Virus record (IMG/VR): IMGVR_UViG_2526164666_000022
Span: 1-6,871 of that record
DNA length: 6,871 bases
DNA from: a virus
Lineage: Duplodnaviria > Heunggongvirae > Uroviricota > Caudoviricetes
Reading direction: 5' to 3' (one strand)
In this document: piece by piece, positions 3,141 to 4,725 of the stretch
Layout: each line of letters starts with the position of its first letter
Position numbering within the stretch: the first letter of the stretch is position 1
Position numbers and translations under genes: made by a program
Notes under the pieces: generated by a model
Seen by the model: the letters and a program-made list of their open reading frames with translations, nothing else
Told to the model about the DNA's origin: nothing
Databases searched by the model: none

Positions 3141-4454
3141 ATGGCAGTAAAGATTTCAGGTGTACTGAAAGACGGCACAGGGAAAACCGGTGAGAACTGC
3201 ACCATTCAACTGAAAGCCAGACGGACCAGCAGCACGGTGGTGGTGAACACGGTGGCCTCTGAAAATCCGGATGAAGCCGGTCGTTACAGCATGGACGTTG
3301 AGTACGGTCAGTACAGCGTCATTCTGTTGGTGGAGGGCTTCCCGCCGTCACATGCCGGGACCATCACCGTGTATGAAGATTCTCAACCGGGGACGCTGAA
3401 TGATTTTCTCGGTGCCATGTCGGAGGATGACGTCCGGCCGGAGGCACTGCGTCGTTTTGAACTGATGGTGGAAGAAGCGGCGCGTCACGCTGAGGAGGCG
3501 AAGAAGAATGCCGGAGAGGCGGAGACGTCCGCGAGGAATGCCGGCATATCATCCAGTAAGGCGGAAGCGAGCGCGGCAAATGCTGACACTTCAGCAGGGG
3601 ATGCATCGGAGTCAGCCCGGCAGGCGGCAGAAAGTGCAGCCGCTGCAAAGCAGTCAGAGGAGGCGTCCTTGTCCTCGGCTTCTGCGGCCGCTCAAAAAGC
3701 CAGTGAGTCATCACAAAGTGCAGCAGAAGCTGAATTGTCAAGAAAGACGGCAGAAAGTGCAGCCGGTAATGCAGCCAGGGATGCAACGACCGCAACAGAA
3801 AAAGCCCGGGAGTCAGCAGAAAGCGCACAGTCAGCGGAACAAAGCAGGATAGCGGCGGAAGAAGCCGTAAACCGAATCCCCACCGTGGTGGGGCCTCCCG
3901 GGCCAAAGGGGGAACCGGGTCCCGCGGGTCCTCAGGGGCCGAAGGGAGATAAAGGAGAGCGTGGCGACACCGGCCCGGCAGGGGCAACCGGTGAAAGGGG
4001 ACCGGCAGGTGATGCTGGTCCGGCAGGCCCGCAGGGGCCGAAAGGTGACAGGGGAGAGCAGGGAGAGACCGGTCTGACGGGAAATGCAGGTCCACAGGGT
4101 CCAAAGGGAGATACCGGTGCGGCAGGCCCGGCAGGCCCACAGGGACCGAAAGGAGAAACAGGTGCGGCTGGCCCGGTGGGGGCAACCGGACCTCAGGGGC
4201 CGAAGGGCACCCGGGGGAGACACAAAATCCGTTTTCGTCTGGGGCCGGGAAACATTATTGAGACAAACAGCAATGGCTGGTTCCCGGATACAGATGGCGC
4301 ACTCATCACCGGACTGACCTTTCTTGCCCCCAAAGATGCCACACGGGTTCAGGGTTTTTTTCAGCATTTGCAGGTCAGGTTTGGCGACGGGCCGTGGCAG
4401 GATGTCAAGGGGCTGGATGAAGTGGGCAGTGATACAGGCAGAACAGGAGAATGA
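3141..4454 (+). CDS. stf: Side tail fibre protein (lambda Stf-like N-terminus, Ala/Ser/Glu-rich shaft, collagen-like Gly-X-Y region, short C-terminal tip domain)
   Basis: The N-terminus from ATG 3141 ([15 protein letters not shown]…[44 protein letters not shown]…[27 protein letters not shown]) matches my memory of lambda Stf. The six-frame ORF begins at 3099, but that ATG lies inside the terminator hairpin and its extra residues are not Stf-like, so 3141 is preferred. Stop is TGA at 4452-4454. Confidence 0.9.
3891..4217 (+). repeat. Collagen-like Gly-X-Y triplet repeat tract within stf (about 36 consecutive triplets, Pro/Lys/Gln/Glu-rich)
   Basis: Translation [109 protein letters not shown]. 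At nucleotide level the unit GGNCCNCAGGGNCCGAAAGGNGA recurs imperfectly. Confidence 0.9.
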
Positions 4455-4455
4455 C

Positions 4456-4725
4456 ATGAATATTTTGAGAAAGCTTATGGAGCGTCTGTGTGGTTGCGGA
4501 AAGCATGATGGCCGTGAACACGTGCAGTCGCCTACAGCACAGCTGCGACTGGGACCGGCAGACATTCTGGAGTCAGATGAGAATGGTATTATCCCGGAGC
4601 AGGACGGGGTAATCACGCAGGTGGTGATACTGGATGCGGATAAAAAGCAGATACAGTGCGTGGTAAGACCGCTGCAAATCCTGCGTGCTGACGGGACGTG
4701 GGAAAATATTGGCGGGATGAAGTAA
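4456..4725 (+). CDS. Small hypothetical protein (89 aa) coupled to stf; its C-terminal two-thirds is paralogous to the Stf C-terminal tip domain; function unknown (possible fibre tip or assembly accessory)
   Basis: ATG at 4456 lies one base after the stf stop (TGA C ATG) with AGGAGA at 4444-4449 as Shine-Dalgarno. The six-frame ORF extends to 4324 in the same frame, but that part overlaps stf and lacks an RBS. Stop is TAA at 4723-4725. It does not resemble lambda Tfa. Confidence 0.6.
   Translation: MNILRKLMERLCGCGKHDGREHVQSPTAQLRLGPADILESDENGIIPEQDGVITQVVILDADKKQIQCVVRPLQILRADGTWENIGGMK

Follow-up and report, generated by a model that had tools for sequence, protein, structure and literature searches.

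A second, free-standing copy of the fibre-tip knob follows the collagen-like side tail fibre gene of an Escherichia coli prophage and is maintained as a selected gene

Why should a phage encode the C-terminal knob of its side tail fibre a second time, as a small protein of its own? This question is raised by a stretch of 6,871 nucleotides (positions 1 to 6,871 of IMG/VR record IMGVR_UViG_2526164666_000022, referred to below as the window), which represents the terminal part of a lambda-like prophage of enterohaemorrhagic Escherichia coli (EHEC). On its + strand, stf (3141-4454), a gene for a collagen-like side tail fibre of 437 amino acids (aa), is followed by a small open reading frame (ORF; 4456-4725, + strand, 89 codons plus stop) that encodes a free-standing phage fibre C-terminal (PfC) domain. 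An earlier note, based on the DNA letters only, had interpreted this arrangement as an old duplication of the distal fibre module and had left open whether the second copy was a spare or alternative receptor-binding tip, a tip-mimicking chaperone or a fossil of tip exchange by recombination. The analysis presented here identified the free copy as a selected gene with a three-part build rather than as a fossil.

Stf showed the domain order of EPclA, with a PfN domain, a coiled coil, collagen repeats and a PfC knob; both this order and the length of the protein are those described for EPclA by Ghosh et al. (2012; PMC3368898). Pfam matches comprised phage_tail_N (residues 1-133, E = 2e-66), Collagen, and Phage_fiber_C (PF06820; residues 363-426, 123 bits, E = 6.4e-36), and the corresponding stf coding sequence is called by the Prokaryotic Genome Annotation Pipeline (PGAP) in E. 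coli O103 strain RM8385. The knob at the fibre's C-terminus (PfC1; 4227-4418, + strand) covered all 64 positions of the PF06820 profile, as did residues 28-89 of the small ORF (120.8 bits, E = 3e-35, model positions 1-64), against a gathering score of 25 bits. The domain in the small ORF (PfC2) occupies codons 29-89 (4540-4722, + strand). A tail of 13 codons that follows PfC1 in stf (4419-4451, + strand) is absent from the free copy.

Similarity between the two copies was evident at the protein level. The segments singled out in the earlier note were located as it had described them: nucleotides 4236-4412 encode RLGPGNIIE...QDVKG (Stf residues 366-424), and nucleotides 4546-4716 encode RLGPADILE...ENIGG (residues 31-87 of the 89-aa product). 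Identity was 35% between residues 366-426 of Stf and 29-88 of the small-ORF product, and a BLASTP comparison of entire Stf with the small ORF yielded 22 identities over 62 positions, 61% positives and 2 gaps (E = 3e-11). The Smith-Waterman score was 103, whereas 5000 shuffled sequences scored 23.2 ± 3.9 and did not exceed 46 (z = 20). The DNA of the copies was related yet diverged at every codon position, as had been claimed: over 57 aligned codons they were 55% identical (0.51, 0.67, and 0.47 for codon positions 1, 2, and 3, respectively), and the longest exact word common to both was 9 nucleotides. The claim that the small ORF is not of the lambda Tfa type also held, since a Pfam search at E ≤ 0.1 returned PF06820 alone; that search and an NCBIfam search, which returned nothing, gave no Tfa or Caudo_TAP profile match. 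Searches of the PDB with phmmer and with a profile gave only chance matches, none of them under E = 0.2.

Synonymous sites of the two knob copies were saturated (pS 0.62), and an orthologous pair was detected in contigs of Salmonella enterica, including subsp. salamae. In these contigs, a 79-aa ortholog of the small ORF (protein clusters P0128 and P0255) is preceded by an AGGAGG site and overlaps the upstream gene by 14 nucleotides in an ATGA-type arrangement. The upstream gene encodes a 212-aa protein that ends in a PfC domain and in which Pfam found no collagen repeats, which indicates that the pairing of knobs is independent of collagen. Gene order (PfC1-tipped fibre, small ORF, hairpin terminator, NleG and SopA-like cargo) was the same as in E. 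coli. Identity between the species amounted to 65% for PfC2 and 40% for PfC1, as compared to 30-37% across copies. Each copy was thus closest to its counterpart in E. coli; together with the saturation of synonymous sites, this supports the proposal of an old duplication, which predates the split of these phage lineages. These identities further indicate that the free copy is the slower-evolving of the two. Between E. coli and Salmonella, dN of the small ORF was 0.30 and dS about 1.9. Similarity between the two species begins exactly at the ATG of the small ORF and includes a common N-terminal pattern, M-x-I-(L/F)-K-K-(L/I). The Salmonella orthologs lack 10 linker residues and some also lack the cysteines found in the window copy.

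Initiation signals of the small ORF were highly conserved. Its Shine-Dalgarno sequence, AGGAG (4445-4449, + strand), lies within the final stf codons, 6 nucleotides 5′ of the ATG, and the stf stop codon TGA (4452-4454) ends 1 nucleotide ahead of that ATG. The complete segment AGAACAGGAGAATGACATG, which combines the Shine-Dalgarno sequence, the stf stop codon and the ATG, was unchanged in 76 of 79 related loci, with one substitution in 2 more, while the AGGAG-N6-ATG start was retained in 78 of the 79. A start placed 1 base past the stop of the preceding gene is a layout for translational coupling, and the small ORF is the last gene before the operon terminator. This intrinsic terminator (4737-4775, + strand), a hairpin formed by AAAACCGGAG...CTCCGGTTTT and followed by a U-run, closes the late tail operon. 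A scanner for consensus terminators missed the hairpin; it was detected by RNA folding (-23.1 kcal/mol, z = -5.55; none of 200 shuffled sequences was as stable).

Selection on the small ORF was assessed from per-site ratios of nonsynonymous to synonymous polymorphism (pN/pS). A first sample, consisting of 84 copies ranked by their identity to the small ORF, was biased towards that ORF. The estimate was therefore repeated on an unbiased set of 80 IMG/VR loci picked on the fibre knob alone, 71 of which were evaluable, with the same outcome. In this second sample, the 89-aa ORF was intact in 70 of the 71 loci and pN/pS of the entire ORF was 0.19. Constraint was distributed unevenly, with values of 0.12 for codons 1-11, 0.69 for codons 12-28, and 0.077 for the PfC2 domain (codons 29-89) in this sample; over repeated estimates, the values ranged over 0.12-0.13, 0.69-0.78, and 0.077-0.082, respectively. 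Out-of-frame control readings of the same DNA gave ratios of 1.2 and 2.3; in the loci used for these controls, the population dN/dS of the fibre's own knob was 0.33. The window copy carries a glycine at position 51, where most copies have an arginine.

Two monomer runs of AlphaFold2 (AF2) on the small ORF with family alignments reached mean predicted local distance difference test (pLDDT) scores of only 53 and 47, so that no more than their secondary structure could be used. Both weak models predicted a helix at residues 3-11 and an all-beta knob. A Foldseek search of the PDB with the better model returned nothing at E ≤ 0.001, a negative to which the poor quality of the model lends little weight. 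The predicted helix, together with the pN/pS profile, describes the small protein as two constrained parts joined by a free linker: an N-terminal amphipathic helix (MNILRKLMERL; codons 1-11, 4456-4488, + strand), predicted by AF2 at low confidence and low in pN/pS, and the knob, connected by a variable segment (CGCGKHDGREHVQSPTA; codons 12-28, 4489-4539, + strand) with high pN/pS and AF2 pLDDT below 50. One allele (P0049, 762 member sequences; for example in O157:H7 PA40) carries an indel in this linker. Its annotated product begins MMTVNTGELLTAQ, without the N-terminal helix, and the allele probably represents a single clonal prophage copy with a broken or shortened gene. The motif LCGCGKH in the small protein was also considered as a lipoprotein or zinc-knuckle signature. 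This reading was rejected, as the cysteines are absent from Salmonella orthologs and from some E. coli alleles; because the motif is not conserved, it does not represent a lipobox. Neither a hydrophobic signal segment nor a signal peptide was found in the small ORF.

Expression of a relative of the small ORF is documented in the proteome supplement of a preprint on the cryo-electron microscopy (cryo-EM) of phage phi24B, which lists two peptides unique to it, VITQVVILDADKK and ADGTWENIGGMK, from purified virions. The rows of these peptides show a value of 3, which, judging from the layout of the table, was read as 3 spectra each, as compared to 2267 peptide-spectrum matches for the fibre. Per peptide, the small protein thus occurs in virions at a few percent of the fibre, a trace level. 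The database entry that contains these peptides out-scored the fibre in a single gel slice, the second lowest (EA1829), which also held other products of 50-75 residues. Together, the peptide and gel-slice data indicate a small protein that is produced in lytic growth; it is not taken up in the main text of the preprint. The small ORF is very likely to encode a separately translated, selected protein.

Could the ORF nevertheless be a neutral remnant, a functionless and decaying leftover of tip exchange or cargo insertion? The region does generate duplicated fragments of the small ORF. In 17 of the first 83 related loci, a third, partial copy was found 700-1000 nucleotides downstream amid nleG cargo. 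Examples of these truncated copies, situated between nleG, nleB2 and nleC cargo genes, occur at positions 3543-3673 of locus L002, 3476-3597 of L014 and 3781-3921 of L090, and further ones in L009, L010, L015, L038, L052, L060, L061 and other loci. Third copies have lost their 5′ half and contain stops and indels of 1, 2 and 7 nucleotides at a nucleotide divergence of approximately 15%; PGAP labels them as pseudogenes, and some retain the terminator, with all 35 of 35 hairpin nucleotides preserved despite decay of the ORF part. They are true fossils that arise as by-products when cargo turns over at the tail-operon end. A chimeric cluster (P0028, 76 sequences), composed of the intact small ORF and a third-copy remnant, indicates that recombination between the two deletes the intervening cargo, and the end of the small ORF with its terminator seems to be a recurrent junction for gain and loss of effector cargo. 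Some full copies are frameshifted as well (L111 and P0049). However, genuine remnants in this region look decayed, while the start of the small ORF was kept in 78 of 79 loci, its reading frame was intact in 70 of 71, and its pN/pS was 0.19 overall and 0.08 in the knob, as compared to 1.2-2.3 for the out-of-frame controls; moreover, the Salmonella ortholog was retained at a dS of about 1.9. These observations contradict the 'fossil of tip exchange' suggested earlier, and a neutral remnant is scarcely credible.

A related proposal, advanced for the homologous ORF68 of phage Sp5 (Mondal et al., 2016; PMC5155283), holds that the ORF is a silent cassette, kept as DNA able to replace the fibre tip by recombination. 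Natural recombinants do exist: in P0059 (locus L084), an 11-nucleotide microhomology, GGGACCGGCAG, marks an in-frame fusion of the collagen region with the downstream knob, and P0123 is the reverse chimera, which joins residues 1-40 of the small ORF to the last two thirds of the fibre knob. These clusters hold only 4 and 1 sequences, against thousands of the normal form, and both reflect microhomology-mediated events. With 55% DNA identity and a longest shared word of 9 nucleotides, the pair of knobs is no substrate for homologous recombination. No full-length fibre occurred among the 120 closest relatives of the small ORF, and fibres that end in the downstream module were very rare, represented by one deletion recombinant. 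Silent DNA would, furthermore, require neither a conserved Shine-Dalgarno sequence and ATG nor an N-terminal helix, for which a fused tip would have no use, and it would not explain selection at the protein level (pN/pS 0.08). The free copy is also better conserved than the tip that it is supposed to replace. A silent cassette is therefore quite improbable. The spare or alternative receptor-binding tip of the earlier note is likewise disfavoured by the better conservation of the free copy, the missing recombination substrate and the rarity of fibres with the downstream module at their end. Systems in which a second copy of a receptor-binding end lies beside an expressed gene include diversity-generating retroelements (DGRs), the invertible G segment of Mu and C segment of P1, and Neisseria pilS. 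In contrast to these systems, the copies in the window are in direct orientation and share 55% DNA identity, and the second is equipped with start signals of its own and shows selection at the protein level. The ORFs of the window include neither a reverse transcriptase nor an invertase. A DGR was rejected because the copies are 55% identical instead of near-identical and the large ORFs are J, lom, stf, nleC and an insertion sequence (IS) fragment, and an invertible fibre-tip switch of the Gin/Cin/Pin type because both copies are on the + strand, without flanking inverted repeats and without a recombinase ORF.

A further alternative is that fibre and small ORF are joined into a minor fibre variant with two knobs by ribosomes or polymerase changing frame late in stf, through a programmed +1 frameshift or slippage. 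The small ORF is in the +1 frame relative to stf, and this frame is open for 44-46 codons 5′ of the ATG, both in the window and in the majority of its relatives among the loci. In addition, a run of seven T residues is present at 4355-4361 in the window, the GenBank record of phage AU6Stx1, in which the small ORF is named atfT, carries a note proposing a +1 frameshift, and hypothetical fusions of the fibre and the ORF were added to the proteomics search database by the authors of the phi24B preprint. Comparison of related loci did not support this model. The upstream +1 frame was open for 46 codons in 66 loci but for only 13 codons in 12 of 84, and in Salmonella it is closed 1 codon before the ATG, the codon at which conservation between the two species begins. 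The T7 run was present in only 13 of 79 loci, most of which have GGGGCTGTTTCAG at that site, and slippage there would disrupt the fibre's own knob in mid-domain. The overlap region showed no unusual RNA structure (z = 0.05), a frameshift signal at ORF68 was not found by Mondal et al. (2016; PMC5155283) either, and the gel-slice hint from phi24B points to a small species. Fused frames in L055 and L028, with open frames of 540 and 250+ codons that can be mistaken for a programmed frameshift, result from single-base indels inside the fibre knob at differing sites, as is typical of mutation or sequencing error. Programmed frameshifting was thus rejected on the basis of RNA folding and of the incomplete conservation of slippery site and open frame, and such a fusion is highly improbable.

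The interpretation that remains best placed is that the small ORF encodes a protein translated on its own that serves the knob-tipped fibre as an accessory or partner, with a probability of approximately 0.5. In this interpretation, an ancient tandem duplication of the trimerising knob gave rise to an independent late gene directly downstream of stf, in which purifying selection maintains the helix and the strongly conserved PfC beta-domain while the linker evolves freely. By analogy with the homologous fibre domain, the small protein may form a PfC-type trimer: residues 363-426 of EPclA, its PfC domain, trimerise alone, as shown by size-exclusion chromatography and multi-angle laser light scattering, and a Col-PfC fragment refolded its collagen helix rapidly after heating, which the authors credited to nucleation by PfC (Ghosh et al., 2012; PMC3368898). 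Through the shared fold, the protein could work in trans at the tip of the fibre, either as a distal partner or as a helper of assembly that is not essential, with the N-terminal helix as a putative second contact element, and it would hold the gene position that Tfa has in lambda, though it is unrelated to Tfa. The tip-mimicking chaperone mentioned in the earlier note is a viable candidate role. That the protein is an accessory of the fibre at all has somewhat less than an even chance, and the specific proposal of a self-derived, trans-acting assembly factor or distal cap, which would dock by knob-on-knob contacts and the N-terminal helix and would replace Tfa in collagen-like fibres, is tentative.

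The small ORF travels with PfC-tipped fibres irrespective of the remaining fibre and virion, as in lambda-like siphoviruses (EPclA), short-tailed Shiga toxin (Stx) phages (EPclB) and a Salmonella prophage. Its closest counterparts, Sp5 ORF68, phi24B 'gp59' and AU6Stx1 atfT, are of the same family, have 89 aa and are located after a gene for a PfC-tipped collagen-like fibre; the ORF in the window is another copy of this ORF68-type gene (88-98% identity), although its host is a long-tailed lambda-like prophage with J, lom and stf and Sp5 is a short-tailed Stx2 phage. With the PfC domain of EPclA (PF06820; PMC3368898), the free copy shares the family, a length of approximately 62 residues, a predicted all-beta fold and the RLGP, NG, P-DG, T, LQ and DG-W motifs. 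It is, however, only 35% identical to that domain, has neither the collagen stalk nor the C-terminal tail of 13 residues, adds a helix and linker at its N-terminus, and evolves more slowly. Lambda Tfa, P2 gpG and Mu U are encoded by small late genes directly after the side tail fibre gene. The small protein resembles them in gene position and as a plausible helper or partner of the fibre C-terminus; its sequence is unrelated to theirs, it is, unlike Tfa, a paralogue of the fibre's own tip, and it is non-essential in Sp5. The gp38-type adhesins of T2 and T6 are likewise separate small proteins encoded by the fibre gene, and the product of the small ORF could similarly sit on the distal end. Whereas gp38 adhesins are stoichiometric and hypervariable, only traces of the small protein are present in virions, and its sequence varies less than that of the tip. 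Finally, a metagenomic 565-aa phage-like protein (P0146; L091 3505-5202, run SRR17035117) consists of four tandem units of approximately 77 aa followed by collagen repeats. The second halves of these units resemble PfC (VVVLDAD...GILRVRQADGTW.EIPA.KG), with a PF06820 score of 57.6 bits, above the threshold. This protein, a weak 'Rosetta stone', indicates that PfC-like knobs can be stacked in one fibre and suggests a broader family of such stackable knobs, with PfC as one member.

Several observations weigh against a partner of the fibre. The AF2 monomer models (pLDDT 53 and 47) were uninformative on the putative binding of the small protein to the fibre. Trimerisation does not require the small protein, since recombinant EPclA and its PfC domain alone form trimers in E. 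coli in its absence (PMC3368898). In Sp5, deletion of ORF68 did not abolish plaque formation or lysogenisation; the gene was listed among the non-essential ones and no defect was reported (PMC5155283). An abundance in virions of a few percent of the fibre per peptide means that the protein is not a stoichiometric tip component and that it could be a contaminant. The linker-frameshift allele P0049, although clonal, is common (762 sequences), which indicates that single copies of the small ORF can be lost. A free homologous domain might, moreover, poison fibre trimers instead of helping them. An alternative is a selected protein with a role unrelated to its own fibre, such as a soluble knob that is released upon lysis and masks a receptor or binds debris, a capsid- or tail-docked holder of stowed fibres, or a lysogen or host-interaction factor tied to the adjacent type III effector cargo. 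In addition to its dispensability in the laboratory and its mere trace presence in virions, such a role would be in line with the constant vicinity of effector cargo (nleC, nleG, SopA-like) in hosts with type III secretion and with the cryo-EM study of phi24B, which reports that fibre tips point toward the capsid with an unresolved contact. It is nevertheless unlikely: the protein has no signal peptide and, given the unconserved Cys motif, no lipobox, its gene is co-transcribed with late tail genes 5′ of the terminator, and its strict pairing with PfC-tipped fibres over three architectures is most simply explained by a role related to the fibre.

The surroundings of the gene pair were those of a prophage end with effector cargo. 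The stf region of the window was 99.7% identical to that of E. coli O103 RM8385, whose prophage adjoins ydfJ, while the J region was approximately 92% identical overall. gpJ ends at 2475 and is followed by lom (2478-3077). As compared to the intact gpJ of RM8385, a 1-nucleotide deletion at approximately 715-725 (GAAAAG-AAGCC versus GAAAAGGAAGCC) leaves J as a pair of ORFs that overlap (35-772 and 610-2475), which may reflect a defective prophage or a sequencing error. A hairpin with a T-run that resembles a terminator was observed at 3104-3124, 3′ of lom and ahead of the stf start codon (3141); stf and the small ORF are therefore presumably expressed from late transcripts that escape termination by antitermination. 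At the junction of the collagen and PfC regions of stf (4209-4233), a compensated pair of frameshifts, with a G lost in GGCGACCC and an A gained in CACAAATCC, converts the usual linker GDPGETQ to GTRGRHK directly ahead of IRFRLGP. Downstream of the small ORF, PGAP calls a 23-codon pseudogene, 'tail assembly protein, missing N-terminus', at 4727-4795 (3078-3146 of locus L089), which overlaps the terminator; either it is what remains of a gene once present downstream, or the call may be spurious. A truncated nleG fragment lies 3′ of the terminator and 5′ of nleC: a 63-aa ORF (4935-5126) matches just the first 60 of the 212 positions of PHROG 808 and resembles the N-termini of NleG effectors in related loci, and is probably a truncated nleG pseudogene. 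nleC itself is intact (5155-6141; Peptidase_M85, E = 8e-113), and beyond it lies the end of an IS3-family (IS600-like) transposase gene (6595-6819, - strand). nleC and the IS edge constitute effector cargo at the prophage end.

Both knobs are widespread within a narrow range of hosts. Of 5426 complete E. coli genomes, 697 (13%) carried PfC1, at 6159 places in total, and the PfC2 of the small ORF at 6765 places in 698 of them, with a median of 10-11 copies in carrying genomes. The 89-aa ORF occurred at 88-98% identity in 296 phage records, mainly of Stx-converting phages, and in short-tailed Stx2 phages it follows a 645-aa fibre at 91-94% identity. An exhaustive, profile-free HMMER search of 1.84 billion representative proteins gave 61 hits, nearly all of them E. 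coli gene fragments. Exceptions were the Salmonella orthologs, the tandem-unit metagenomic protein and a few low-complexity repeat proteins, the last of which are regarded as chance hits. The family is thus narrow and comprises E. coli, E. albertii, Citrobacter rodentium and Salmonella enterica. A scan of genome contigs added only E. albertii and one 725-bp contig of a Xanthomonas pisi assembly (L083, NZ_JPLE01000138.1), whose small ORF shows 91% protein identity to that of E. coli and which probably represents assembly contamination.

The duplication itself is already catalogued and therefore of little value as a discovery. The small ORF matches PHROG 576 over its entire length (1-89 of 89, 192.8 bits, E = 1.4e-57), it belongs to the Pfam family discussed above, and its PGAP product name is 'phage tail fiber C-terminal domain-containing protein'. 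In the literature, Sp5 ORF68 has been discussed as non-essential and as a proposed 'reservoir' for fibre variation (Mondal et al., 2016; PMC5155283), while Ghosh et al. (2012; PMC3368898) described the PfC of the fibre as a trimerisation module and did not mention the free copy. Searches of the literature by locus tag and gene name found no further mention of the small ORF. What is added here is that the ORF is a real, selected three-part gene, which is neither a fossil nor a cassette for homologous recombination and very probably no frameshift extension of the fibre.

The gene pair is among the most repeated features of EHEC prophages and is also carried by Stx phages and by prophages with type III effectors. 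As the phi24B preprint counts the part played by collagen-like fibres in host recognition among the open questions, a protein that is encoded beside the fibre gene and is conserved, under selection and expressed is a reasonable target for knockout and binding studies. If the small protein does act on the fibre, a tip partner derived from the fibre itself would perhaps tune which hosts are adsorbed by Stx- and effector-carrying prophages.

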